Assembly (NCBI GenBank): GCA_040758355.1
Contig: JBFLWF010000004.1
Location: 32,001-96,000, forward strand
Reading direction: 5' to 3'
DNA length: 64,000 bases
Source of the DNA: Nitrospirota bacterium
GTDB lineage: Bacteria; Nitrospirota; Thermodesulfovibrionia; Thermodesulfovibrionales; Dissulfurispiraceae
This document shows, piece after piece, positions 5,005 through 17,937 of this stretch (positions are counted from its first letter, which is position 1; each line of letters starts with the position of its first letter). The position numbers and the translations under genes were made by a program. The notes below the pieces were generated by a model. That model made no database searches and was not told the origin of the DNA. It saw nothing but the letters and a program-made list of their open reading frames with translations.

Positions 5005-5042
5005 TTTCTTCATGAAACCGAGAAAAAGAAGGAGGTTTGGAA

Positions 5043-6899
5043 ATGTCTGAAAATAAAAATAAAGACAAAAAGCTTGACAGAAGAGGTTTTCTTAAATTTT
5101 TAGGCGTTGCCGGTGCTGCTGCAGGCGCAGGCATGATTACAAAGGAAATTATCCCGGATTCGGCAAAGAAGACCATTGTAGCAAAGGCTGAGGCTGCTGC
5201 CAACGGCAAGCAGAAGTATGAGGTAAAGCCCGGCGAGTATGATACACACTATGGCTTCTGGAGCGGAGGCCATTCGGGCGAGGTAAGGATTCTTGGTGTC
5301 CCTTCAATGCGCGAGCTCAAAAGGATACCGGTCTTTAACCTGGAGTGCGGCTCCGGCTGGGGATATACCAATGAGAGCAAGAAGCTCCTGAGAGGCGTTA
5401 CTGTTGGAGATACCCATCATGTCCACGGCTCTTATAAAAACGGCACATATGATGGCAAATACCTCTTTGTGAACGATAAGATCAACAACAGGGTTGCGAG
5501 GATAAGGATCGATTATATGGAGGTGGATGCGATACTTGAAGTGCCCAATATACAGGGAATGCACGGACTCTTCCCGCAGAGGCATCCAAAGACAGAATGG
5601 GTTGTTGTAAACAGCGAATTTCAGGTGCCTTTCCCCAACAGGCCGGAAGCGCCGCAAAAGGAGTATTATGGAGCACATACCATAATAGATGCAGAAAGGA
5701 TGGCAGTAATATGCCAGGTCATGATAGAGGAAAACCTTGACCTTGCTGCAACAGATTATCAGGGCAAATACTCGATGGCTACTTCCTACAACACGGAGCA
5801 GGGTGTTGTCATCTCAGAGATGCTCGCAGCCGACCATGACTACATGATTGTCTTTAACTGGGAAAGGATAAGGAATGCGCTGAAGAAAGGCAATTACAAG
5901 ACTATAAACGGCGTGAAGGTCATAGACGGAAGGAGGGGTAAATCCGACATAGTTTTAAGGATACCTGTTCCGAAGAACCCGCATGGCGTCAACATATCGC
6001 CTGACGGGAAATATGCTGTCTGCTCAGGAAAGGTCTCTCCGACATGTACGGTTGTCGACCTCTCAAAGTTGGACCTTGCCTATGCAGGAAAGATAAAGCC
6101 GGCAGAATGCGTAGTTGCAGAGCCGTTCATAGGGCTTGGTCCGCTGCATACAACATTTGACGGCAGGGGCAATGCCATAACATCCGTATTCATTGACAGC
6201 ACCAATGTGAAATGGAATATTGCCAAGGCAATTGAAGCAGAAAGGCAGGGACCCGAGGCAAAGAAGAAGAACCCGCATATTGTGGATGTCCTGGATGTCC
6301 ACTACCAGGTAGGACACATGATGGCATCAATGGCCGAGACAAAAGAGCCGGACGGCAAATGGCTCATATCGCTTAATAAGATGTCAAAGGACAGATTCAT
6401 CAATGTGGGCCCGCTGAAGCCCGAGTGTGAACAGCTTGTGGACTGTAGCGGCGACAAGCTCAAGATCGTTCATGACGGCTCGGCTTATATAGAGCCACAT
6501 GACGTTATCCTTGTGAGGAGGGATTTAATAGAGCCGCATGTAAAAGACCGTTACAATATGTTTGAACATCCACTTGCAACAACAAAGAGCGGGGTTGAGA
6601 GGAAGGGGAATGATGTTATTGTCAGAATGACAGCAAATGCCCCGATGTACGGGCTTCAGGAAGTCAGGGTGAAGAAAGGCAACAGGGTTACTGTCATTGT
6701 GACGAACAATGATGAGATATCCGATCTTACGCACGGCTTTGCCCTTGAACGCCACAACATCAGCTTTGTGGTCGCACCCTTCCAGACAAAATCAGCGACA
6801 TTCACAGCAGACAAGCCCGGCGTATACTGGGCATACTGCACAAACTTCTGCCATGCACTACACCTCGAGATGAGGATGAGGTTCATAGTGGAAGCATGA
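5043..6899 (+). CDS. nosZ: Nitrous-oxide reductase, Tat-exported
   Basis: RRGFLK signal; CuZ motifs DTHHVH, MHG, PKNPHG, GPLH, DVHYQVGH, EPHD; CuA HGF...CTNFCHALHLEM; AGGAGG 7 nt before ATG 5043. Confidence 0.97.
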   Translation: MSENKNKDKKLDRRGFLKFLGVAGAAAGAGMITKEIIPDSAKKTIVAKAEAAANGKQKYEVKPGEYDTHYGFWSGGHSGEVRILGVPSMRELKRIPVFNLECGSGWGYTNESKKLLRGVTVGDTHHVHGSYKNGTYDGKYLFVNDKINNRVARIRIDYMEVDAILEVPNIQGMHGLFPQRHPKTEWVVVNSEFQVPFPNRPEAPQKEYYGAHTIIDAERMAVICQVMIEENLDLAATDYQGKYSMATSYNTEQGVVISEMLAADHDYMIVFNWERIRNALKKGNYKTINGVKVIDGRRGKSDIVLRIPVPKNPHGVNISPDGKYAVCSGKVSPTCTVVDLSKLDLAYAGKIKPAECVVAEPFIGLGPLHTTFDGRGNAITSVFIDSTNVKWNIAKAIEAERQGPEAKKKNPHIVDVLDVHYQVGHMMASMAETKEPDGKWLISLNKMSKDRFINVGPLKPECEQLVDCSGDKLKIVHDGSAYIEPHDVILVRRDLIEPHVKDRYNMFEHPLATTKSGVERKGNDVIVRMTANAPMYGLQEVRVKKGNRVTVIVTNNDEISDLTHGFALERHNISFVVAPFQTKSATFTADKPGVYWAYCTNFCHALHLEMRMRFIVEA

Positions 6900-7018: not shown

Positions 7019-8098
7019 ATGAGAAAAACCATACTATCACTAATATTCCTTTTTGTTTTCATTTACACAGGCATTGGGTACAGTGAGCAATGGAAACTGT
7101 TTGAACATAGATACAGCTATAAATTGGAGGATGTGCTTCAGGCATCGAAATTTGTACAGAAAAAGGGCTACTGGGAAGGTTACAAAGATAATAAACTCGT
7201 AGGTTATGTCTTTATATCCAAGGATTGGACGAGCAAATTGGTCGGTTATGCAGGTAAGCATCTCGAAACGCTTATCGGTATGGATACAAACGGAAACATT
7301 ACGGGCGTAAAACTTCTCTTTCACTCGGAGCCTATAGTCCTGATCGGCCTTAAAGAGGAGCATTATCTGGACTTTATAAAACAATATAAAGGGAAAAACA
7401 TAAAGAGCCCCCTGTCTGTGGGCAGGGAAATATCGATGGATGTCATTACAGGGGCTACGGTTACTGCTGTCGTTCAGAACTCGATAATCCTCGAGAGTGC
7501 GAGAAAGGTTGCCGATGCCACAGGCGTGCTGAAGGTTGCAAAAGGCAAAGGTCGGAAGCTCAGCCAGAAATATGCAGCGCTCACATGGGATGAACTGAAG
7601 AAATCAGGCGCACTTAAAAACATCGTGATAAGGCACAAAGACCTGGGAATCGAAGGCGAAGACCCCTTTCTCGACCTCTATGTCGGAGTTGCGACACAGC
7701 CTTCCATAGGCAGGAGTCTTCTCGGAGATGCTCTCTACAGGGATATCATGGGAAGGCTGAAGAACGGCGAATCTGCGATAGTCATATTTTCAAGAGGGAA
7801 AGGGTCGTTTAAAGGCACCGGATTTGTCCGCGGAGGCGTATTTGACAGATTTAATATTGAACAGGGCGCCAAGGTTCATATGCTGACGGACAAGGATTAC
7901 AGGGTCTTATCCGAACTCCATGCAAAGGGCGCTCCATCTATAGATGAAGGGGGCGTGTTCATTATCAGGGGCAGGGATTTTGATCCGACAGAGCCTTTTA
8001 AATTGAATCTTATACTCCCTTACCGTGTTTCTGTTGCCAAAAAGGAGTTCAAATCTTTTTATACGGAGTACGAGATTCCGGAGAGGTTTTTAGAATAA
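7019..8098 (+). CDS. NosR-like periplasmic FMN-binding protein (N-terminal half of NosR)
   Basis: Signal peptide; GYAGK, HSEPI, flavinylation motif DVITGATVT, SFKGTGFVRGGVFDR. Confidence 0.85.
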   Translation: MRKTILSLIFLFVFIYTGIGYSEQWKLFEHRYSYKLEDVLQASKFVQKKGYWEGYKDNKLVGYVFISKDWTSKLVGYAGKHLETLIGMDTNGNITGVKLLFHSEPIVLIGLKEEHYLDFIKQYKGKNIKSPLSVGREISMDVITGATVTAVVQNSIILESARKVADATGVLKVAKGKGRKLSQKYAALTWDELKKSGALKNIVIRHKDLGIEGEDPFLDLYVGVATQPSIGRSLLGDALYRDIMGRLKNGESAIVIFSRGKGSFKGTGFVRGGVFDRFNIEQGAKVHMLTDKDYRVLSELHAKGAPSIDEGGVFIIRGRDFDPTEPFKLNLILPYRVSVAKKEFKSFYTEYEIPERFLE

Positions 8099-8101
8099 TT
8101 C

Positions 8102-10366
8102 ATGTCATCGTTTAGCAGCTTATTAAAGCATATCTTCGAAGATACAATTGAGACACTGAAAATTATCCCATGGATGCAGATATGGGCGCAGAAATGGGCC
8201 TCGATTGCCGTCTTCGCAATATTCCTGTTCGCATTGATAATGATGATGGTTTTCAAGGACAGGCTTGCTAAAAACAGGAAGGTGCTGAATATAGTCGCTT
8301 ACGGTATACTGCCATTTTCGTTTATATATGTTGGACTCGTACTAAAGGCGCAGCCCACAACAACCAACATCGTTATATTGATCAATGGAATAAAAGAAGG
8401 GTCTTTTCCTTTAGGCCTCTTTATCATGGAGCCGTATATATTCCTGTCATTTCTCTTTATTCTTTTAACCATCCTTTTATGGGGCAGGGGCGTTTTCTGC
8501 GGCTGGCTCTGTCCATATGGTGCAATGGTTGAACTTTTAAATAAACTTTATGATAGGTTTTTCCGCAGATTCAGGTTGAGCCTTCCAGAGAAGATTCACT
8601 GGAAGCTTATTTACCTTAAATATGTAATATTCGCAATCATATTAGGCGTATCTTTCTACAACTTCATGCTTTCCGAATACCTTGCCGAGGTCGAACCCTT
8701 CAAGAGCTTTGTATTGAAACTTCACAGGCAGTGGTATTTTGTCCTTTATTTTATCCTGATAACAGCAGGCTCGGTAATAATATACAGGGCGTACTGTCGC
8801 TACCTCTGTCCCCTCGGCGCTGCTTTGAGCTTACCCTCATTCATTAAGTTGATACCTCTGATAAAACTCAAAAGACATGACACGTGTAGAATATGTAAGA
8901 TATGCGGCAGGAGCGAATGCAATTATCAGGCCATTACACCGCATGGCAATATTAAAGTTACCGAATGCCTTAGCTGTCTTGAATGTCAGATAAACTTCTG
9001 GGATGAGGACAAATGCCCTGCATTGATAAAAAAGAAAAAGGAGGGTCGCTCTACAGTCTTCAGCCTTTTACCGTTTGCTTTTTTAATTATATCTGCAATG
9101 CTATTTGTCCCTTCGCTGACATATGCAAAGGCTATAATTGTAGGGACCGATTATCGCACAATCGGCGATGCCCTGAAAAAGGCTAAAAATGGAGATGTCA
9201 TAGAGGTCAAGGCAGGAGAATACAGGGAGAGGCTTAAGATAGATAAGGCCGTGCATCTTAAGGGTATAAACAACCCTGCAATCATTGAAAGCGGAGGGCT
9301 TATAATCACGATAGCGGGCAGGGGCGTTACTGTAGAAGGGTTTACAATCAGAGACGAAAATCCAACATCCCAGTTAGAGAGCGCCGGGATATATATTTCC
9401 AAAGGTTCCGATGGGGCTGTTATAAAAAACAACCGCCTTTACAGCGTTATGCACGGCGTCTGGAGCGTTAGCGCCAGAGGCATAAGGGTGGAAAACAATT
9501 ACATCGAGAGCAAAAAGGATCTCGATAGGAACTACAGGGGTAATGGAATATATCTCGTAGACAGTCAGGAAGCAACTATTATAGGGAACAGAATGGATCA
9601 CTGCCGGGATGGAATGTACATAGAGGTTTCTCACGACGGGAAAATAATGGGCAATGATGTAACAAACTCCCGTTATGCAGTACACACAATGTGGGTGGAC
9701 AGGGTTGTTTTCTCTAAAAACAGGGCATCAGGCAATCTGGTTGGGTTTGCTATTATGTATTCAAAGCAATCCGAGATTACAGATAATATTGCTGTGGGCA
9801 ACAGCACGCACGGCATCCTTCTGATTCAGACTGTAAGGAGCTACATAGCAAGAAATACAGTAATAGGCAATACCAAAGGGGTCTACTTTTACAACTCGAT
9901 ATTTAACAACTTAGTCTCCAATCTTATAATGAATAATAGTCTTGGCCTGCATAACTGGGGAGGTTCCGAAGACAATGCCGTGAATAAGAATTCCTTTATC
10001 GGCAACGAGGTTCAGGTAAAGTTTGTTGCAGGCAGAAACCAGCAGTGGGATAATAACTACTGGAGCGATTATCTGGGATGGGATATGAACGCCGACGGCA
10101 TCGGCGATATGCCATTCGAATCCAATACAGTGGTTGACCATATCTTATGGAGATACCCTGCTGCCAAGTTGTTGTATGCAAGTCCTTCTTTCCAGTTTCT
10201 CTGGATGCTCGAAAAGCAGTTTCCGGTTCTGAAGGTTCCGAGGGTGTTTGATGCAAAACCATCCATGCTTCCGTTGCACAAAGACTGGAAGGAGTTAAAG
10301 GCCAAATATCCATACGCCCCTGAAAAATACTACGGTGAGATGGAAAAAATCCCTGTTGCCCATTGA
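8102..10366 (+). CDS. nosD: Fusion of NosR C-terminal membrane/4Fe-4S region with NosD
   Basis: GRGVFCGWLCPYG, EVEPFK, CRYLCPLG and CxxCxxC clusters; then beta-helix NosD with RGNGIYL, RYAVHTMW, NYWSDYLGWDMNADGIGD; one uninterrupted ORF. Confidence 0.88.
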   Translation: MSSFSSLLKHIFEDTIETLKIIPWMQIWAQKWASIAVFAIFLFALIMMMVFKDRLAKNRKVLNIVAYGILPFSFIYVGLVLKAQPTTTNIVILINGIKEGSFPLGLFIMEPYIFLSFLFILLTILLWGRGVFCGWLCPYGAMVELLNKLYDRFFRRFRLSLPEKIHWKLIYLKYVIFAIILGVSFYNFMLSEYLAEVEPFKSFVLKLHRQWYFVLYFILITAGSVIIYRAYCRYLCPLGAALSLPSFIKLIPLIKLKRHDTCRICKICGRSECNYQAITPHGNIKVTECLSCLECQINFWDEDKCPALIKKKKEGRSTVFSLLPFAFLIISAMLFVPSLTYAKAIIVGTDYRTIGDALKKAKNGDVIEVKAGEYRERLKIDKAVHLKGINNPAIIESGGLIITIAGRGVTVEGFTIRDENPTSQLESAGIYISKGSDGAVIKNNRLYSVMHGVWSVSARGIRVENNYIESKKDLDRNYRGNGIYLVDSQEATIIGNRMDHCRDGMYIEVSHDGKIMGNDVTNSRYAVHTMWVDRVVFSKNRASGNLVGFAIMYSKQSEITDNIAVGNSTHGILLIQTVRSYIARNTVIGNTKGVYFYNSIFNNLVSNLIMNNSLGLHNWGGSEDNAVNKNSFIGNEVQVKFVAGRNQQWDNNYWSDYLGWDMNADGIGDMPFESNTVVDHILWRYPAAKLLYASPSFQFLWMLEKQFPVLKVPRVFDAKPSMLPLHKDWKELKAKYPYAPEKYYGEMEKIPVAH

Positions 10367-10376
10367 GGTGAATTTA

Positions 10377-11273
10377 ATGCTTGAGTTAAGTGAAATATCG
10401 AAGAACTTCGGAGATGTAAAGGCAGTAGACTCTGTCTCGCTGAAGATGAAGGAAGGCGAGATGCTCGGTCTTGTGGGGCCCAATGGTTCCGGCAAGTCGA
10501 CACTGCTGAAGATAATGCTCGGAATTACAAGGCCGTCGTCAGGCAAGGTCCTTTTCAGCGGCAAAGAATTGGCAGAAAGGGATTGGAAGGAGATCAGAAA
10601 GAGAATAGGGTACATGCCAGAGAGGGTTAACTTTTATGACAACCTCACAGGAAAGGAGACCCTTGAGTTGTTTGCAAGAATCAAAGGAGGAAATCTTAAT
10701 AATATCTCTGAGCTATTAAAAAAGGTTGGCCTTGAGAATGCAGTTGACAGGAGGGTTGGAGGCTATTCCAAGGGGATGAGGCAGAGGCTGAACCTGGCAC
10801 AGGCATTGTCCAATGACCCTGACTTTTTAGTTCTCGATGAACCCACATCAGGGCTTGATCCTGTCGGGACAAAGGAATTCTACAGCATACTCGATGATGT
10901 AAGAACGAGGAAAAAGCTCACGGTCATCCTTTCATCCCATATACTGGCAGAGATTGAAGACAAGATAGACAGGGTCGCAGTGTTGAAGTCAGGATCTCTC
11001 AGGGCAGTGGGGAGTCTTGAAGAACTCTATTCCGGATTCAATCTCCCTTTAAAGATTTCAATAGCCCTTAAGGAAAGGAATGAATCTCTGGAAGATCTTT
11101 TGAAAAAGGAAGGGGCTATGGATATTGGATATAAAGAAGGCTATATTACAGCCAGCATTCAGAGGGAAGATAAACTGAGGCTGCTTTCGGCAGTAATGGA
11201 GAAAAAGGAAAGTTTTGTCGACCTTTCCATAAGAGAGCCGAACCTTGAGGAGGTATTCTTTGGTATTCACTAA
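10377..11273 (+). CDS. nosF: ABC ATPase NosF
   Basis: GPNGSGKS, YSKGMRQRL, LDEPTSGLDP; lies between nosD and nosY. Confidence 0.88.
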   Translation: MLELSEISKNFGDVKAVDSVSLKMKEGEMLGLVGPNGSGKSTLLKIMLGITRPSSGKVLFSGKELAERDWKEIRKRIGYMPERVNFYDNLTGKETLELFARIKGGNLNNISELLKKVGLENAVDRRVGGYSKGMRQRLNLAQALSNDPDFLVLDEPTSGLDPVGTKEFYSILDDVRTRKKLTVILSSHILAEIEDKIDRVAVLKSGSLRAVGSLEELYSGFNLPLKISIALKERNESLEDLLKKEGAMDIGYKEGYITASIQREDKLRLLSAVMEKKESFVDLSIREPNLEEVFFGIH

Positions 11274-12090
11274 TGCTATGAGGGCTATAGCCCATAAAGA
11301 ACTTTCCGATAAATTGAAGAGCAGGTGGGTCCTGGTGATTGCTGTGGGATTTGCTGCGCTCACCATTGTTATTTCATATTTTGGAGGGGCTACTGCAGGC
11401 GTTGCAGGGTTCAGGAGCATAGATGCAACCATTGCCAGTCTCACGAGCCTCGTAACCTACTTTATACCTATCTTAGCCCTCACCCTCGGCGGCGGAATAG
11501 TTGCGGATGAGCGTGATAAGGGCACGCTCGAGATATATCTATCGTCCCCTATATCCATCGGTGAATTCATCATGGGAAAATTCTTCGGCCTCGCCATTGC
11601 CCTCGCCATCTCCACACTTGTGGGTCTCGGCGTTTCCGGCGCAATATTGCTGATAAATCTGGGCTTCGGCGCAATAGGCAGTTACAGCATATTCATGCTC
11701 AACTCTGTAGTCCTCGGCCTTATTTTCCTGAGCGTCTCATTTTTAGTGTCCATTCTCTTCAATGAGAGGGCAAGGGTTATTGCCTTTACCGTATTCCTCT
11801 GGCTTTTCTTCGCAGTGCTTTATGACCTGGGTCTGGTGGGCCTTCTCATAATAACCAAAGGCACTGTCGGAAATGAAATATTTTCCACCCTCCTGACATT
11901 AAATCCAGTTGATGTGTATCGCATTCTGAACTTCTTATCCATCGGTGAACTCAAGGTGTTTTTAGGACTGGCATCTGTCGAGCTTCCGTCATACATGAAG
12001 ACGCCTGTCCTATGGGTCATATCGCTGCTGTGGGTGGTGCTGCCCCTTATTGCGAGCTATCGCCTCTTTAAAAGGAGATATCTGGCGTGA
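11260..12090 (+). CDS. nosY: ABC permease NosY (start TTG 11260 or ATG 11278)
   Basis: IAHKELSD, ERDKGTLE, GKFFG, LNPVDVYR; multi-TM. Confidence 0.88.
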   Translation: MVFTNAMRAIAHKELSDKLKSRWVLVIAVGFAALTIVISYFGGATAGVAGFRSIDATIASLTSLVTYFIPILALTLGGGIVADERDKGTLEIYLSSPISIGEFIMGKFFGLAIALAISTLVGLGVSGAILLINLGFGAIGSYSIFMLNSVVLGLIFLSVSFLVSILFNERARVIAFTVFLWLFFAVLYDLGLVGLLIITKGTVGNEIFSTLLTLNPVDVYRILNFLSIGELKVFLGLASVELPSYMKTPVLWVISLLWVVLPLIASYRLFKRRYLA

Positions 12091-12890
12091 AACAAAGAAT
12101 AAAAAACATGGAGGTTAGTATTGTGATTAAGTGTCTTGTAGGTGTTGTATCTGCCCTGCTGTTTTTTGCTGGTGCAGCAATGGGGCATGAGGTTGTGGAT
12201 GTTAAGAATGGTGCAACCATTAAAGGTGTGGTTAAGTTCAAGGGTACTATGCCGCCTGATGAGAGTATTGCCATTGACAGAAATGTGGAGGTCTGCGGAA
12301 AGGAGCAGAAGCTCAATAAATACACTATTACCAACTCGATGGTAAAGAATGTAGTCGTTTTTATAGATGAGCCGAAGAAGGGCAAGCCGATTCCTAAAAA
12401 TACAGCGGTTGCTCTCACCATAAATAAGTGCAGGGTAGAGCCGCTGGTAAGTGTTGGGTTTGTGGGCGGCAAGTTTTTACTCAGAAACGATGATGATATT
12501 CTTCACACTCTTCAGTTAAAGCTCTGGCTTGAGTATCAGAGAAGGGTTTCAGCAAGGCCATTAGAAAATGGCGCAACTATTTACAACATTGCCTTGCCGC
12601 TCAAGGGCAAAAAGATAGAGAAGCCCATAAAAGAATCTCATAGATACCAGCCGGATACAGGGGTCATCAGGGTGACGTCCAATTCCCATTCATGGATGAG
12701 GGGATATGTATTTGTATTTGACCATCCGTATGCAGCAGTGACCGATGAAAAAGGCTCCTTTGTAATAGACAACCTGCTGCCAGGCGAGTATGTCTTGAAG
12801 GTATGGCATGAAGGCTTTGGCTTTCAGGAAAAGAAGATAAAACTTTCACCCAATGAGACGGCAAATATCGAGATAGTGTATGAAAAATAG
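12087..12890 (+). CDS. Exported cupredoxin-like/carboxypeptidase-regulatory-like domain protein (paralog A)
   Basis: Signal peptide; NDDDILH, HSWMRGYV, HPYAAVTDEKGSF, WHE; start uncertain. Confidence 0.7.
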   Translation: MKQRIKNMEVSIVIKCLVGVVSALLFFAGAAMGHEVVDVKNGATIKGVVKFKGTMPPDESIAIDRNVEVCGKEQKLNKYTITNSMVKNVVVFIDEPKKGKPIPKNTAVALTINKCRVEPLVSVGFVGGKFLLRNDDDILHTLQLKLWLEYQRRVSARPLENGATIYNIALPLKGKKIEKPIKESHRYQPDTGVIRVTSNSHSWMRGYVFVFDHPYAAVTDEKGSFVIDNLLPGEYVLKVWHEGFGFQEKKIKLSPNETANIEIVYEK

Positions 12891-13788
12891 GTGGCTCATA
12901 GCCATATTTTTTGTATTTCTTATAGTACTGGCTGTTAATTACAGTGCAGTGGCCAGTGCATTGGAAAAAAGCGCCATGGATTTCAGCCTCAACAACTGGG
13001 ACGGCAGGACTGTATCCCTGAAAGACCTGAAGGGGAAGGTGGTGGTTCTCACCTTTTCATATGCCTACTGTTCTGCCAGATGCCCGATTATAACAGGCCG
13101 CCTTTATTACCTCGATAAAACGATGAATGCACCCGGAGACGTGGTATATCTCCATATGTCTGTTGATCCTGATAATGATACGCCAGAAAGGCGGAAGAAA
13201 TACTTTAACCTATACGGCATAGATGCAACAAAAGACGGCAGATGGATGTTTTTATCAGGCCAAAAAAACAAGATGTCAGAGATATGGGGATTTTATGGGG
13301 TAACGGCAAAGAAGGTTAAAGACAGGAGACTGCCTGAGAAATATTACATGCAGTATGACCCGAAGGTAGTGGTTATAGACAGCAACGGTCTTATCAGGTA
13401 TGAGGTCGGCTTTGATTTTTCGGAAGAAGAAATAAAGTCCCTGATCGAAAAAATATCCTCTAAACCTTCCATAAGGTTTTCTGAAACTAAATTCGATTTC
13501 GGCACGGTTAAAGAGGGGGATATTGTAAGTCATGACTTTGAATTCATTAATGAGGGCAATGGCGTTTTAAAGATAAAAGACCTTATTCCGGCCTGAAAGG
13601 CATGCACGAGCGCCTCTGCCAGTTCGGCAGAGATAGGACCGGGGGAAAAGGGAAAGATCACAGTGACTTTAAACACAAAGGGAAGGTCTGGCAGATGGAG
13701 CAGGACAGTAGAGGTCTGGACGAATGATCCTGAAAAGAAGATGGTAGTGCTTTCGGTCTCGGTTAATTCAATAAAGGAGCGGCAGTGA
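12880..13788 (+). CDS. SCO/SenC-DUF1573 fusion, probable selenoprotein (UGA at 13594-13596)
   Basis: SCO CSARCP; the DUF1573-like domain FDFGTV...FEFINEGNGVLKI continues past TGA as U-KACT...IGPGEKGKITV...VWTNDP to TGA 13788, which overlaps the next GTG start. Confidence 0.8.
13614..13632 (+). promoter_or_regulatory. Putative bacterial SECIS hairpin
   Basis: CTCTGCC-AGTTC-GGCAGAG, 7-bp stem, GU in loop, loop 24 nt after the UGA. Confidence 0.65.
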
Positions 13789-14792
13789 TAAATAGGAGGG
13801 AGTTTCTTGCAGGTTCATTGATGCTGGCCGGCTATGCAGCGATGGGGGGCAGTAATGTCTTTGCATTGCCTGTCAGTGATGCAAAGGTAAAGGCTGTAAG
13901 CATGAAAATAACATGCACGATGGAGGTGTTGAAACCGCCAAGGAATAAAAACATAAATATATGGACGCCCATTCCATCCGACAACAGCGAGCAGAAAATC
14001 TCTAACCTCTCTGTCAAATCGAGGATGCAATACAAAATGACAGAAGATATCTCTAATAGGAACAGGATGTTCTTTTTCAATACAGACAAACTGACAGCAG
14101 GCGAAGCCATAACCATGAAATATATGATGGTCAGGAAGACTGCGGATGTGGCCGAAGACAGAGACGAAAGGCCTGAAAAACATATCGAGCCGTCTGAATG
14201 GGAAAGATGGGATGACAATATCGCAAGATATGTCGATGAACTTGTGGGCAAAGAAAACGATCCTGTAAAGATAGGAAGAAAGATATACGATGCGCTTATA
14301 GACAGCCTCAAATATGTTCATGAGGCATGCGGGAGGGGAGTAAGCACATTGATGTTTGAAGAGAAGATCGGCAGGTGCGATGAGTTCCATGCCCTCTTCA
14401 GGAGCATGATGATGTATAAGAAGATTCCGGTTAAATGGGAACAGGGCATGGCCCTGCCATATCCATCTGTTATTAAAAAGAGTGGCGAGGTCGAAGCAGA
14501 CTGCATAAACGCCCATAGCTGGGTGAAATTCTATATAGGCGACAACAAATGGATGCCTGTGGATTTATCGGAGGCAAAGAGGAGACCTGACTTGAGGGAT
14601 TTCTATTTTGGCAAGCTTGCTGCCAACAGGGTCAAGATGTCCAATGGAAGGGGGATAACACTTAATCCGCCGCAGAAAAGCCCTATGAATACTTTTCCGT
14701 ATACTTATGCAGAGGCAGACGGCATACCGTTGATATACGGTCATAACTACAAAAACAGGATGAAATACGAAGTAATAAAGATCGAGGCATAA
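13785..14792 (+). CDS. Tat-exported transglutaminase-like protein
   Basis: RREFL signal; GRCDEFH, HSWVKF, WMPVD (Cys-His-Asp triad). Confidence 0.78.
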   Translation: MINRREFLAGSLMLAGYAAMGGSNVFALPVSDAKVKAVSMKITCTMEVLKPPRNKNINIWTPIPSDNSEQKISNLSVKSRMQYKMTEDISNRNRMFFFNTDKLTAGEAITMKYMMVRKTADVAEDRDERPEKHIEPSEWERWDDNIARYVDELVGKENDPVKIGRKIYDALIDSLKYVHEACGRGVSTLMFEEKIGRCDEFHALFRSMMMYKKIPVKWEQGMALPYPSVIKKSGEVEADCINAHSWVKFYIGDNKWMPVDLSEAKRRPDLRDFYFGKLAANRVKMSNGRGITLNPPQKSPMNTFPYTYAEADGIPLIYGHNYKNRMKYEVIKIEA

Positions 14793-14798
14793 ACGAAG

Positions 14799-15287
14799 AT
14801 GAAATGGTTAGTAGCACTAATTTTATCGATTTCTTTGATATTGCCGGCATATGCTACGGAAGGAGTGAAAGAAGGCACGCCGGCGCCGACATTTGTGCTC
14901 CTCGATGAGAATAACAAGAACGTTGATATTGGCACATTTATGGATAGGCCGACGATCATATATTTCACGCACAATGCCTGTTTTTACTGCACACAGTTGA
15001 TATTGTACCTGAAAAGGGCGCAGGCAAAATTTGGAGAGAAGAACCTTCGAATTATAGGCATAAATATTATGGCTAAAGACCAGAAGCTGATAAAGGCATA
15101 CAAGGAAGAACTCGGCTTTATCTTCCCAATGTTTGCCGGAAACAGGGAAGATGTCCTCAGGGCATACAGGATAAATTATGTTCCTGTCATAGTATTTGTG
15201 GACTCAAAAAAAATAGTAAGAAAGGTGGTGGGACATTACATACACGAGGATGAGCTTCACAGAAATATAAAAAATATAATGAAGTAA
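14799..15287 (+). CDS. Exported TlpA/AhpC-TSA-like thioredoxin-fold protein
   Basis: Signal peptide; GTPAPTF, CFYC, cis-Pro YVP. Confidence 0.8.
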   Translation: MKWLVALILSISLILPAYATEGVKEGTPAPTFVLLDENNKNVDIGTFMDRPTIIYFTHNACFYCTQLILYLKRAQAKFGEKNLRIIGINIMAKDQKLIKAYKEELGFIFPMFAGNREDVLRAYRINYVPVIVFVDSKKIVRKVVGHYIHEDELHRNIKNIMK

Positions 15288-15333
15288 TGTGCAGGGCATT
15301 GTCCTGACGATTACTCAAACGAGGAGGAAGAAG

Positions 15334-16092
15334 ATGAAAAAGATGAAGAAGGTTTTTGCATTAGTTGTAGTTTTCTCTATGTTGCTTGCAGCAACCTCTT
15401 TTGCCTATGAGGTTGTGGATGTTAAGGGTGGAGGGAGCATTAAGGGTAAGATCAAGGCAACAGAAAAGATAAAAGACCCTGTAATCCCCATTAAGATCAA
15501 ACCAAAACCGGATCCAAAAGAGACCGAGCAGGAAAAGGCTACCTGCGGCGAAAGCCAGCAGGCAGGGATGTATATTATATCGGCTGCAAATGAGGTAAAG
15601 AATGTCTTTGTTATAGTAGAGGATGTGAAGAAGGGAAAGGCTGCGCCAAAGGCTGACCTCACAATCGACAACAATAAATGTTATTTTGTGCCGCTCGTAG
15701 GCATCACCTATAAAGGTTCTGATTTTATAGTGAAGAACAGCGACCCCCTTCTGCACAACACAAACCTTGGGCTAAAGCTCGATGACAAGAGAAGCACCGT
15801 GTATAATCTTGCCCTTCCGAGGAAGGATCAGGTCATAAAAAAGCCTGCAAGGAGAACAGGCCTTCACGAGGTGAAATGCGATGCCCATGAGTGGATGAGG
15901 GCATATGTATATGTTTCGGAGCATCCGTATGTAGCCATAACAGATGCAAGCGGCAGCTTCGAGATAAAGGACCTGCCTCCCGGAAAATACAAGGTAAGGA
16001 TATGGCATGAAGGATTCAAAGAGGTTACAAAGGATGTGGATGTATCCGCAGGCAAGGCTTCGGACCTGAGTGTGACTCTTACAAAGAAATAA
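15334..16092 (+). CDS. Exported cupredoxin-like/carboxypeptidase-regulatory-like domain protein (paralog B)
   Basis: GAGGAGG RBS; signal peptide; NSDPLLHN, KCDAHEWM, HPYVAITD, WHE. Confidence 0.75.
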   Translation: MKKMKKVFALVVVFSMLLAATSFAYEVVDVKGGGSIKGKIKATEKIKDPVIPIKIKPKPDPKETEQEKATCGESQQAGMYIISAANEVKNVFVIVEDVKKGKAAPKADLTIDNNKCYFVPLVGITYKGSDFIVKNSDPLLHNTNLGLKLDDKRSTVYNLALPRKDQVIKKPARRTGLHEVKCDAHEWMRAYVYVSEHPYVAITDASGSFEIKDLPPGKYKVRIWHEGFKEVTKDVDVSAGKASDLSVTLTKK

Positions 16093-16107
16093 GATGATGC
16101 TATTGCA

Positions 16108-16146
16108 AATATCGCAGGGCTTGCTAATGGCAAGCCCTGCGATATT
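16108..16146 (+). terminator. Perfect 17-bp stem-loop inside the operon
   Basis: AATATCGCAGGGCTTGC-TAATG-GCAAGCCCTGCGATATT. Confidence 0.65.
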
Positions 16147-16165
16147 ATAATTTAATACAAAAATT

Positions 16166-16639
16166 ATGAGACAGCTTTTTTGGGTAATAGTAGTTCTGTG
16201 CCTTGCAGCATGTGCCAGGGATAAGGGAGAAAAACCCCTTCCTGTCGAGTTTACCAGAGACCATGCATGCAATGTATGCGGAATGATCATAGTGGATTTC
16301 CCAGGTGCAAAGGCGCAGATACATTATAAGAACAAGAAATACGATGCATTCTGCAGCACGCTGGATATGTTCCTGTTTTACCTTCAGCCTGACCGTCCGG
16401 GAAATATCGTTGCCGTCTATGTGAATGATATGGGGAAGTCCGATTGGGAACATCCAAAGGGCAACTGGATAGATGCTGAAAAGGCATTTTATGTTTACGG
16501 AGGGGATGTGATGGGGCCTATGGGCGAGGCACTGGTCCCATTTTCTGATATAAAGGATGCCGAGGCATACATAAAGAAACACGGAGGCAGGATAATCAGA
16601 TTCAATGACGTGACAATGGAGATCCTTAAGCCAAGGTGA
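16166..16639 (+). CDS. nosL: NosL copper chaperone lipoprotein
   Basis: Lipobox LAAC; CNVCGM, WIDAEKAFYV, GPMG, HGG. Confidence 0.9.
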   Translation: MRQLFWVIVVLCLAACARDKGEKPLPVEFTRDHACNVCGMIIVDFPGAKAQIHYKNKKYDAFCSTLDMFLFYLQPDRPGNIVAVYVNDMGKSDWEHPKGNWIDAEKAFYVYGGDVMGPMGEALVPFSDIKDAEAYIKKHGGRIIRFNDVTMEILKPR

Positions 16640-16648
16640 AATTCTTAA

Positions 16649-16960
16649 ATGAAGGCCAATAAACTGATAATAACGATTGCCTTCCTTTTGGTATCATCCC
16701 TGCTTATTATTTTAAGCGAGTGGCATTTATGGAGAAATTATGAGTCTGTGAAGATGAAGGCGTTTCAAGGCTATGTGTGCGGGCTTGGGCTCGGTGCCGC
16801 TGTAAATCCTGCATGGGGTTTCATAAACTATGATGCGAGAATCGATTCTGTGGACGAGACACAATTATGGCCCATACCCGGAGGGTATAGCTATTCCCCT
16901 GACAGGGGGCTGTCTGTAAGTGATTTCAGAGAGCTTGCTTTTGAAGTAAGCCGCAAATAG
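16649..16960 (+). CDS. Small hypothetical membrane-anchored protein
   Basis: Fits operon spacing; N-terminal TM; GLGLGA, WPIPGGY. Confidence 0.6.
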   Translation: MKANKLIITIAFLLVSSLLIILSEWHLWRNYESVKMKAFQGYVCGLGLGAAVNPAWGFINYDARIDSVDETQLWPIPGGYSYSPDRGLSVSDFRELAFEVSRK

Positions 16961-16983
16961 AACCGATGAGGAGGTAGATAACG

Positions 16984-17424
16984 ATGAAGAAGACATTCCT
17001 ATCAACATTAATATTTTTATTCACAGTGACGGTATTGACGGGATTTGTCTTTGCCGAAGGTAAAAAGGCAAAGGCTGCTAAGAGCACCTCTGCAAGCAAT
17101 ATCCTTTATGTATGCAACTGCGGTCCTGAGTGTAAGTGTAATACCGTATCGACAAAGACCGGCAAATGTGCATGCGGCGCCGAGCTTGTCCCGATGCATA
17201 TCCTGAAGATCGAAAATGACGAGGCCATACTCTGCACATGCGGCAAGGACTGCACATGCAAGCTTGATCCTAACGACCCTTCAAAGTGCGGCTGTGGAAA
17301 GCAGGTAAGAAGGGTCAGCATAAAGGGCATGTATGCGTGCAGTTGCGGCGCTGGCTGCGAGTGCAATACTGTGTCTGACAAGCCAGGCAAGTGCAAGTGC
17401 GGCGCTGATTTGAAAAAGATATAG
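16984..17424 (+). CDS. Exported Cys-rich metallothionein-like protein
   Basis: GAGGAGG RBS; signal peptide; 18 Cys as nine CxC in three repeats. Confidence 0.75.
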   Translation: MKKTFLSTLIFLFTVTVLTGFVFAEGKKAKAAKSTSASNILYVCNCGPECKCNTVSTKTGKCACGAELVPMHILKIENDEAILCTCGKDCTCKLDPNDPSKCGCGKQVRRVSIKGMYACSCGAGCECNTVSDKPGKCKCGADLKKI

Positions 17425-17436
17425 ACGGAGGTCTTA

Positions 17437-17937
17437 ATGAACAGAAGAGGTATTTTTGTTTTTTTTGTTTTAGTATTTTTTTGTATCCCGGCAGTAAGTG
17501 TTTTATCTGCCGAGAAACTCGATATTGAACATCCTTTTAAGAGTCCGAAAAAATATACCGAAAAGGAGAAATGCGACAACTGCGGTATGAACTTGAATAA
17601 GTTTGCAAGGACGAGGTACGAGTTTCAGACATCGAAGGGTACATTCCATACATGCTCGATACAATGTGTTGCTGTAATGGGCATGAAGCTGAAAGAGGAA
17701 CCAAAAAATGTGAAAGCGGCTGAATATCTCCATCCGGAGCATATGCTCGATGCTGAAAAGGCATTTTTTGTCGTGGGTTCTACAGCGCCCGGGACAATGA
17801 CCACAAAGAGCAAGATAGCATTTCCATCGAAGAAAGAGGCAGAAAGGTTTGCTGCCAAATACGGCGGCACTGTGACCAATTATGAAGGCGCCCTGTCCGA
17901 GGCAAAGAAGGGTGTTTATGTCGGGCACAACCACTAA
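17437..17937 (+). CDS. nosL: Second NosL-family protein
   Basis: CDNCGM, CSIQC, DAEKAFFVVGS, GTM, AERFAAKYGG. Confidence 0.8.
   Translation: MNRRGIFVFFVLVFFCIPAVSVLSAEKLDIEHPFKSPKKYTEKEKCDNCGMNLNKFARTRYEFQTSKGTFHTCSIQCVAVMGMKLKEEPKNVKAAEYLHPEHMLDAEKAFFVVGSTAPGTMTTKSKIAFPSKKEAERFAAKYGGTVTNYEGALSEAKKGVYVGHNH

Follow-up and report, generated by a model that had tools for sequence, protein, structure and literature searches.

What does a gene of a nos cluster encode when its open reading frame (ORF), read with the standard bacterial code, ends in the middle of a protein domain? The question is raised by a 64,000-nucleotide stretch of a Nitrospirota genome (GenBank assembly GCA_040758355.1, contig JBFLWF010000004.1, positions 32,001 to 96,000), here called the window. 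An initial annotation, made from the sequence letters alone, had proposed that the gene at 12880 to 13788 encodes a hidden selenoprotein, a SCO-DUF1573 fusion with a U-x-x-C motif (U, selenocysteine, Sec), and that the product serves as a selenium-dependent redox or copper chaperone for the CuA site of nitrous-oxide reductase, NosZ. The first proposal is upheld by the analysis reported here; the second is plausible from the gene context. The explanation that best accounts for the whole is one exported selenoprotein of 302 residues, with its UGA recoded, that forms part of an optional block of the nos cluster, and to this we assign a probability of roughly 0.78. That the gene is a real, unannotated selenoprotein gene tied to nos is very probable.

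The reading frame across UGA 239

The features of the gene, with coordinates in the window, are:

12880..13788, plus strand: selenoprotein gene, 302 amino acids plus stop, SCO-like and DUF1573 domains with UGA 239 as Sec (translated with TGA = U)
12880..12957, plus strand: N-terminal hydrophobic signal or anchor segment, residues 1-26, MKNRWLIAIFFVFLIVLAVNYSAVAS
12976..13389, plus strand: SCO1/SenC-like thioredoxin-fold domain, residues 33-170 (PF02630, 69 bits against a cut-off of 22.8)
13069..13086, plus strand: C64-S-A-R-C68-P69, the CxxxCP motif of the SCO-like domain
13354..13356, plus strand: Tyr159 at the distal-His position (HMMER alignment to 4hde)
13471..13746, plus strand: DUF1573/OS_HP2-like beta-sandwich of immunoglobulin (Ig) type, residues 198-289 (PF07610, 76.3 bits against 26.1)
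13594..13596, plus strand: UGA codon 239, read as Sec (25 of 25 homologous sites TGA; aligned to the first Cys of C-G-C; Sec machinery present)
13603..13605, plus strand: Cys242, partner of Sec239 in U-K-A-C (invariant in 36 aligned domains)
13614..13632, plus strand: hairpin of the bacterial selenocysteine insertion sequence (bSECIS) type, CUCUGCC-AGUUC-GGCAGAG, with a 7-bp stem and a 5-nt loop with GU
13786..13791, plus strand: true gene end, tandem in-frame stops TGA TAA

Under translation table 11 the ORF runs from 12880 to 13596 and yields 238 amino acids, the TGA at 13594-13596 being codon 239. Past this TGA a further 63 codons are open, and the frame closes at the TGA at 13786-13788, which shares a GTGA with the GTG start (13785) of the next ORF. 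Pfam domains lie on either side of TGA 13594, and because a complete DUF1573 domain spans residues 198-289 (profile positions 1-91 of 98 in PF07610), the TGA at codon 239 falls mid-domain. The interrupted domain, the 63 codons and the overlap are thus as the initial annotation had described them. Matches by tblastn extend over residues 1-302 in locus L021 and 12-302 in L022. AlphaFold2 models the full-length protein (69-row alignment; predicted local distance difference test, pLDDT, 93.8; predicted template modelling score, pTM, 0.80) as a helix at the N terminus (residues 4-25) with a thioredoxin-like domain and a beta-sandwich. The pTM hints that these two domains may dock. The helix stands apart from the folded domains, and the hydrophobic N-terminal segment suggests that the protein is exported.

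The public protein records do not cross the UGA. A collection of 5.8 billion proteins gave 93 matches, none covering more than 79% of the query, and all 18 homologues that were fetched (231-242 amino acids, 57-85% identity) end at the residue just before the UGA, in ...DL[IVL]P[AS], because gene callers stop at the same conserved codon. Homologous loci were collected as DNA from one genome per species, from a 401-genome sample of the phylum and from a metagenome scan. These provide 25 U-x-x-C-T sites, consisting of the window and 24 loci (L025 was left out as the same record as L021, and L054/L056 and L063/L064 are near-duplicates). Under a search pattern that permitted both codons, TGA occurs at all 25 and Cys at none. 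The motif is U-[KRA]-x-C throughout, with the window reading I-P-A-U-K-A-C-T, and the TGA is conserved in homologous loci down to about 50% identity. The peptide 3' of the UGA is also kept, as ...A-S-A-S-S-A-E-I-x-P-G...V-E-V-W-[TS]-N-D, and among the 63 downstream codons the window and L021 share 45 identical ones, with 11 synonymous and 7 non-synonymous differences.

Cys-type DUF1573 homologues carry C-x-C (CGC, CMC, CAC, CKC) at the Sec position, which bears out the CGC-type motif that the initial annotation gave for this place. Two of them, P0084 and P0090, align PSC-GCT and TSC-GCT to PA[U]KACT, and the six stop-free DUF1573 loci that were fetched all read C-G-C-T. The expectation that homologues would show either Cys or UGA here holds for the family in that Cys is found in Cys-type DUF1573; within the U-x-x-C branch the codon is TGA at every site, and no Cys form was present among the 25 collected. 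A profile search of 1.84 billion representatives (25,227 matches) likewise had no Cys form of the nos branch in its top 150, mostly giant repeat proteins and a list ill suited to excluding such a form. The same 150 show C-x-C[TSA] 148 times and C-x-x-C[TS] five times.

The host genome (2.77 Mb, completeness 99.18%) contains the machinery for selenocysteine, with selA (637.7 bits), selB (385 bits) and selD (328 bits) all above their curated cut-offs and a tRNA-Sec (69.4 bits) that ARAGORN identifies as tRNA-SeC with anticodon tca. The selD gene has an in-frame TGA of its own in a G-U-A-A-K motif. As a separate observation, this selD (L010, G000:C13:51565-52479, minus strand) is itself a selenoprotein, reading R-A-A-G-U-A-A-K, and 14 nt separate its UGA from a GGGUCC-GUC-GGACCU hairpin.

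That the TGA at 13594 might be a nonsense mutation private to this genome, or an error of sequencing, was considered and is excluded by the 25 of 25 TGA codons, by the conserved downstream frame and by contigs in two further runs, both from groundwater and from a different study than the probable source run, whose sequence across the TGA is identical. In the probable source run itself, the Logan contigs break near the UGA and hairpin (window 13581-13610). A variant contig there at low depth (5 against 237, with 20 differences over 199 nt) suggests a second strain. A further contig, X4, spans the gene with 72 differences.

The 7-bp hairpin with a GU loop that had been placed 24 nt after the UGA was recovered at 13614-13632. 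The bacterial SECIS model in the legend to Fig. 2 of PMC13188914 has a loop of 3-9 nt, a stem of 4-16 bp, a UGA-to-loop distance of 16-37 nt and a minimum free energy of -7.5 kcal/mol or lower, and that article describes a loop with G in its first two positions, mostly N-G-[G/U]-N-N. The window hairpin folds at -11.2 kcal/mol, its loop begins 24 nt past the UGA, and it agrees with all four published bSECIS criteria. An ungapped alignment of the 25 sequences reveals that the inner five pairs form in every one. Pair 30-42, both columns of which are third codon positions, is UA in 14 sequences, CG in 7 and UG in 4, and is never broken, while the loop keeps its G and U in every sequence, with Ser AGU and Gly GGU codons alike. 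Pairing is seen in 93.7% of 175 cells, falling to 35-48% when the partner is slid by 1-3 columns, and no shuffle out of 500 scored as high as the real alignment in pairing or covariation. Members of the U-G-C branch also form a hairpin at this position; its loop, over conserved A-S-S codons, is again AGUUC, and its stem has another sequence and register. This shared place and loop on a differing stem argues for an RNA-level constraint common to the family.

Several observations have to be set against recoding. No RNA runs containing the stretch are listed. The 67 nt after the UGA are no more stable than shuffled sequence (z-score -0.36), so the case for the hairpin rests on conservation and not on stability, and Rfam, searched at E up to 10 over 13500-13800, gives no SECIS family and only a chance snoRNA match. 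Double changes occur in one stem pair only, 357 of the 500 shuffles do at least as well when pairs with a change on both sides are counted, and the outer two pairs fail to form in 8 and 3 sequences. The conserved peptide A-S-S-A-E could lie behind part of the hairpin conservation, and related sequences can outdo shuffles without any structure.

If UGA 13594 were a real stop, the product would be a 238-residue SCO-like protein with a DUF1573 stump, arising from a pseudogene, a nonsense mutation or a sequencing error, or else selenium would control a choice between truncated and full products. Gene callers do halt at the UGA in all public records seen, homologous loci with an SCO-like domain alone end near the domain border, and no RNA run listed contains the stretch. 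Yet TGA stands at 25 of 25 loci down to about 50% identity with the downstream frame conserved, the forms of the Sec domain that stand alone or are fused to the upstream neighbour CPDreg1 would keep half a domain, and the SECIS hairpin, the full Sec machinery and the identical contigs in two further runs all speak for read-through, which leaves a real stop very improbable. A reassigned code, in which UGA would specify a standard amino acid without selenium, has only the open frame in its favour and a negligible likelihood: TGA ends the gene itself (TGA TAA), many homologues and SCO-only genes, the ORF map of the window is coherent under table 11, and tRNA-Sec, selA, selB and selD are present. 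Judged from the sequences compared, the stop at 13594 almost certainly encodes selenocysteine. SelB and tRNA-Sec would recode it under the direction of the 13614-13632 hairpin, and translation would end at the TGA-TAA at 13786.

The DUF1573 and SCO-like domains

Selenoproteins of the DUF1573/OS_HP2 type are a known family, on record since 2007. Zhang and Gladyshev 2007 (PMC1976440) list OS_HP2 in their Table 2, the reviews PMC9312934 and PMC13188914 list a "DUF1573 domain-containing protein, PF07610, motif UGC", and NCBIfam model NF041425 is named "OS_HP2 family (seleno)protein"; the window protein scores 73.6 bits against the latter over residues 201-294, under the cut-off of 100. Sec-DUF1573 is common in the phylum: among the 150 rows listed for the phylum sample, 125 match the DUF1573 part only, and 110 of these carry an in-frame TGA and 15 do not. 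The gene at 12880-13788 holds the only DUF1573 of the host genome.

The window protein shares with OS_HP2 the same Ig-like DUF1573 domain and the placing of Sec at the first Cys of C-x-C-T. It differs in its motif, U-x-x-C, which is one residue longer than the catalogued U-G-C. The U-x-x-C branch, found only in nos clusters, is further marked by a diagnostic VEVW[TS]ND strand, by fusion to SCO-like or CarboxypepD_reg-like parts, and by the presence of two Sec residues in some proteins. In L035, L065 and L067, CPDreg1 is followed by two DUF1573 domains, each with an in-frame TGA, the first U-x-x-C and the second U-[KR]-[RS]-A-T, so that two Sec residues are predicted. What appears to be new is a nos-only U-x-x-C branch, set apart by motif and context and of which a Cys form was not found in the searches above, together with the fusion of Sec-DUF1573 to an SCO-like or CarboxypepD_reg-like neighbour and its co-occurrence with a transglutaminase-like protein exported by the twin-arginine translocation (TAT) route and a TlpA-like thioredoxin.

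AlphaFold2 models the DUF1573 domain alone (36 rows) as an Ig-like sandwich with a pLDDT of 95.4. Its closest fold is 2qsv, a functionally uncharacterised Porphyromonas protein (Foldseek E 6e-6; VIA-align Z 14.6, root-mean-square deviation 1.4 over 100 residues), followed by Ig domains of HYDIN, ASH, PapD, MSP and VesB, and a search of PDB sequences with the DUF1573 profile found nothing below E 0.5. In 36 aligned domains the U, the C (at +3, or +2 in U-G-C forms) and the next T are invariant.

The SCO-like domain is the only full SCO1/SenC found by a search of the host genome. Foldseek places it closest to ScoI of Bradyrhizobium in the TlpA-ScoI mixed-disulfide complex (4txo_D, E 6.5e-13), then to BsSco (1xzo) and human SCO1. 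Across 40 aligned SCO-like homologues C64, C68, P69, H92, E153 and Y155 are invariant and Tyr159 nearly so. Alignment with 4hde, an SCO structure from Bacillus anthracis, puts Tyr159 of YMQY at the His of VIHGTSFYLID, the copper ligand of SCO proteins, and Tyr or Phe occupies this position in all 18 fetched homologues. The initial annotation had read the domain as keeping CxxxCP and lacking the distal His, and both observations stand. His92 is invariant in the 40 homologues but Gln in L031-L033.

The optional block of the nos cluster

The selenoprotein gene lies in a cluster with the following neighbours:

5037..6899, plus strand: NosZ, TAT-type nitrous-oxide reductase (TIGR04244, 815.7 bits against a cut-off of 625)
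7019..12090, plus strand: NosR-N-like FMN-binding protein, NosR-C/NosD fusion, NosF and NosY (Pfam, NCBIfam)
12087..12890, plus strand: upstream neighbour, CarboxypepD_reg-like, CPDreg1 (Pfam)
13785..14792, plus strand: downstream neighbour, transglutaminase-core protein with a twin-arginine (RREFL) signal (PF01841, sequence)
14799..15287, plus strand: TlpA/ResA-like periplasmic thioredoxin with C-F-Y-C (Pfam AhpC-TSA/Redoxin; NCBIfam ResA-like)
15289..17937, plus strand: second CarboxypepD_reg-like protein, NosL, two small ORFs and a NosL-like protein (Pfam)

An FtsX/ABC pair follows the NosL-like protein. Domain matches, the U-K-A-C motif and the neighbouring nos genes together support the earlier description of a SCO-DUF1573 fusion in a nos cluster. 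The transglutaminase-like protein has the signal V-I-N-R-R-E-F-L and a core of G-R-C-D-E-F...H...D, and no NCBIfam model matched it.

Across the collected loci, 24 of 25 U-x-x-C sites adjoin CPDreg1 and/or the transglutaminase-like gene, the 25th being on a 1.4-kb contig, and the transglutaminase-like gene stands directly 3' of the Sec or SCO module wherever the flank is long enough to tell. No nos genes were seen near the U-G-C loci (14 short ones and one of 10 kb) or near the six stop-free C-G-C-T DUF1573 loci of the same phylum. The slot between CPDreg1 and the transglutaminase-like gene is variable. It holds the SCO-like::Sec fusion in 7 loci, the window included, and a stand-alone Sec domain in 10, among them L026, where a separate SCO-like gene follows the transglutaminase-like one. 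In 8 loci (L034, L035, L036, L038, L039, L042, L065 and L067) the Sec domain is fused to CPDreg1, either singly (5 loci) or as two DUF1573 domains, U-x-x-C then U-x-x-A (3 loci). Seven further loci have the SCO-like domain only.

TAT-type NosZ scores above cut-off in 16 of the 401 sampled phylum genomes, and no TAT-type nosZ was found in the 4 other sampled genomes of the genus. Among the 16, the nos cluster contains the Sec module in 9, the SCO-like domain only in 6 and neither in one, G086. The G086 cluster (L083, G086:C55:66000-85000) is otherwise of the same type, with CPDreg1 followed directly by CPDreg2, and the SCO/Sec, transglutaminase-like and TlpA-like genes are missing together; because of this joint absence the three gene types are regarded as one optional block. 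The block can be written as an SCO-like and/or Sec-DUF1573 module, a TAT transglutaminase-like protein and a TlpA-like thioredoxin, and it lies between nosDFY and nosL.

Other aspects of the cluster are described here for completeness. By TIGR04244 the NosZ is of the TAT-dependent (clade I) type. NosR is split in the window at 7019-10366: a 359-residue FMN-binding protein matches NosR positions 30-373 (241 bits), and the 4Fe-4S membrane part of NosR forms one 754-residue ORF with NosD. In L022, L058 and L060 the same region comes as two tblastn pieces, so the fusion is not universal. The ORFs at 12087-12890 and 15289-16092 are paralogous proteins of 267 residues, about 35% identical, in which the CarboxypepD_reg match is confined to the last ~60 residues. 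Their first 200 residues, with conserved Cys and His, have no match in Pfam, NCBIfam or PDB sequences, and CPDreg1 searched against PDB sequences gives only a match to a CarboxypepD_reg-type repeat. Between the two NosL-like genes is a 146-residue ORF (16984-17424), conserved in L021, which matches only a plant metallothionein family, weakly and below cut-off (E 0.0091).

A possible role at the copper centres of NosZ and its alternatives

The partners of the selenoprotein, its chemistry and any selenium dependence of N2O reduction are matters that we infer from the recoding signals, conservation, domain identities, gene context and distribution observed above. The nearest documented parallel is CuA assembly as set out in sections 6.3-6.4 of PMC7558416, where TlpA reduces the CuA cysteines and ScoI, ScoI carrying copper docks on subunit II, and PCuAC brings the copper. 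The same article reports lower N2O reduction at low copper in senC2 and pcuC mutants of Paracoccus denitrificans. The window resembles this system in having a TlpA-like thioredoxin two genes away and NosZ, a CuA protein, in the same cluster. It differs in that the host genome is without PCuAC: PF04314 gives no match in the 99.18% complete genome or on the selenoprotein. NosZ carries the only COX2/CuA domain in a PF00116 search of the genome, and thus the matching parts, namely a TlpA-like protein, an SCO-like domain and a small beta-sandwich with a Sec/Cys pair, stand beside the only CuA protein of the cell.

Likeness to individual assembly factors is uneven. With SCO1, SenC and ScoI the window protein shares the thioredoxin-like SCO fold and the CxxxCP motif; it differs in that its subfamily has Tyr or Phe for the distal His and in its fusion to a selenoprotein domain, and its copper binding is putative. 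The small beta-sandwich periplasmic Cu(I) chaperones Cox11, with its C-F-C-F motif, and PCuAC resemble the DUF1573 domain, an Ig-like sandwich whose Sec/Cys pair lies at the end of a strand, by analogy only, and the DUF1573 domain has neither a sequence match nor a ranked fold match to them. NosL and NosDFY (and NosR/NosX) form a co-directional cluster with the selenoprotein, which lies between nosY and nosL, but they have no homology to it, and the block is optional, an SCO-like and/or Sec module being present in 15 of 16 NosZ-positive genomes.

By analogy with TlpA-ScoI-PCuAC, the block could be a thiol/selenol system of the periplasm that assembles or repairs the NosZ copper centres, a possibility that we hold at somewhat below even odds. 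The TlpA-like protein would supply electrons, the His-less SCO-like domain would act as a thiol-disulfide oxidoreductase, and the Sec-Cys pair would either hold Cu(I) or form a transient selenenyl-sulfide with a client cysteine. A fuller version, which we put forward as tentative and on balance unlikely, is that an anaerobic clade of Nitrospirota matures or repairs NosZ in a selenium-dependent manner, with an obligate Sec on the Ig-like domain as a Cu(I)-selenolate donor or as the selenenyl-sulfide partner of the CuA cysteines, taking the place of PCuAC/ScoI and working with the TlpA-like reductase and the transglutaminase-like protein, and that N2O use in groundwater, sediment and mine water is selenium-limited.

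A number of findings count against a copper role. Tyr or Phe replaces the SCO His across the whole subfamily, the SCO part is absent from 18 of the 25 Sec-carrying loci, and the fold matches of the DUF1573 domain include no metallochaperone, with no copper chaperone near the top. The second tandem copies read U-x-x-A and are without the partner Cys. His218, considered as a third metal ligand, was rejected because L058 and L060 have Arg there and several U-G-C forms have Tyr. Since the SCO and Sec modules interchange between genomes and G086 has neither, each is non-essential for NosZ in general, and the three gene types are absent from G086 as a set. The initial proposal stands as far as a selenoprotein in the nos cluster is concerned; a copper-chaperone function, and service to the CuA site in particular, would be conjectural. 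The invariable neighbour, the transglutaminase-like protein, may also be the real partner rather than NosZ.

If so, the block would serve the TAT transglutaminase-like protein and not NosZ copper, for example by keeping its catalytic Cys reduced or by aiding the processing or cross-linking of a client, and the link to N2O would be indirect. This fits the position of the transglutaminase-like gene after the Sec or SCO module wherever enough flank is available, its translational coupling to the module, whose stop its start overlaps as GTGA in the window, the loss of the three gene types together in G086, and the Cys-His-Asp core and RREFL twin-arginine signal of the protein. We nevertheless consider it unlikely, as every occurrence of the block seen to date is within a nos cluster, between nosDFY and nosL, as the SCO fold and its TlpA-like partner have a documented role in CuA assembly, and as the transglutaminase-like protein has no known function and no NCBIfam match. 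A different chemistry for the Sec-Cys pair would be that of a sulfur carrier (a selenenyl-sulfide or persulfide relay for the CuZ sulfide) or of a peroxidase-like guard mending NosZ after oxidation. The catalogue tables of PMC9312934 and PMC13188914 show U-x-x-C as a typical selenoprotein redox motif, other DUF1573 proteins are fused to a rhodanese (P0086) or cytochrome c (P0084) domain, the selenoprotein gene adjoins nosDFY, described as needed for CuZ in PMC7558416, and the U-x-x-A second copies suggest that a lone Sec is enough in some copies. The idea is speculative and its chances are small, for neither Pfam nor NCBIfam reveals a rhodanese or sulfur-mobilising gene in the cluster, and the DUF1573 part has no fold or sequence link to peroxidases.

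Assembly of the NosZ copper centres outside the model proteobacteria is poorly known, and NosZ is, to our knowledge, the only biological sink of N2O. In the titles and abstracts searched, no relevant coupling of selenoproteins or selenocysteine with nosZ, nos genes or N2O-reductase maturation was found. The present work describes a conserved, unannotated selenoprotein in the nos clusters of environmental bacteria, for which all 18 fetched public records are cut at the UGA, and correct annotation of such genes needs Sec read-through. The nos inventory gains an accessory block made up of an SCO-like and/or Sec-DUF1573 module, a transglutaminase-like protein and a TlpA-like protein. Selenoprotein biology gains a nos-linked U-x-x-C branch of DUF1573, with no Cys form found in the sites and top matches searched, as well as proteins with two Sec residues, and the DUF1573 selenoprotein family, whose role has been unknown since 2007, acquires a functional context. 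A link between selenium supply and N2O reduction is plausible from the gene context, and it gives a testable connection between this trace element and the process: certain bacteria of groundwater and sediment may depend on selenium for the assembly or upkeep of their N2O reductase. If this is true, selenium supply would limit N2O consumption in groundwater, sediment and mine-water communities.

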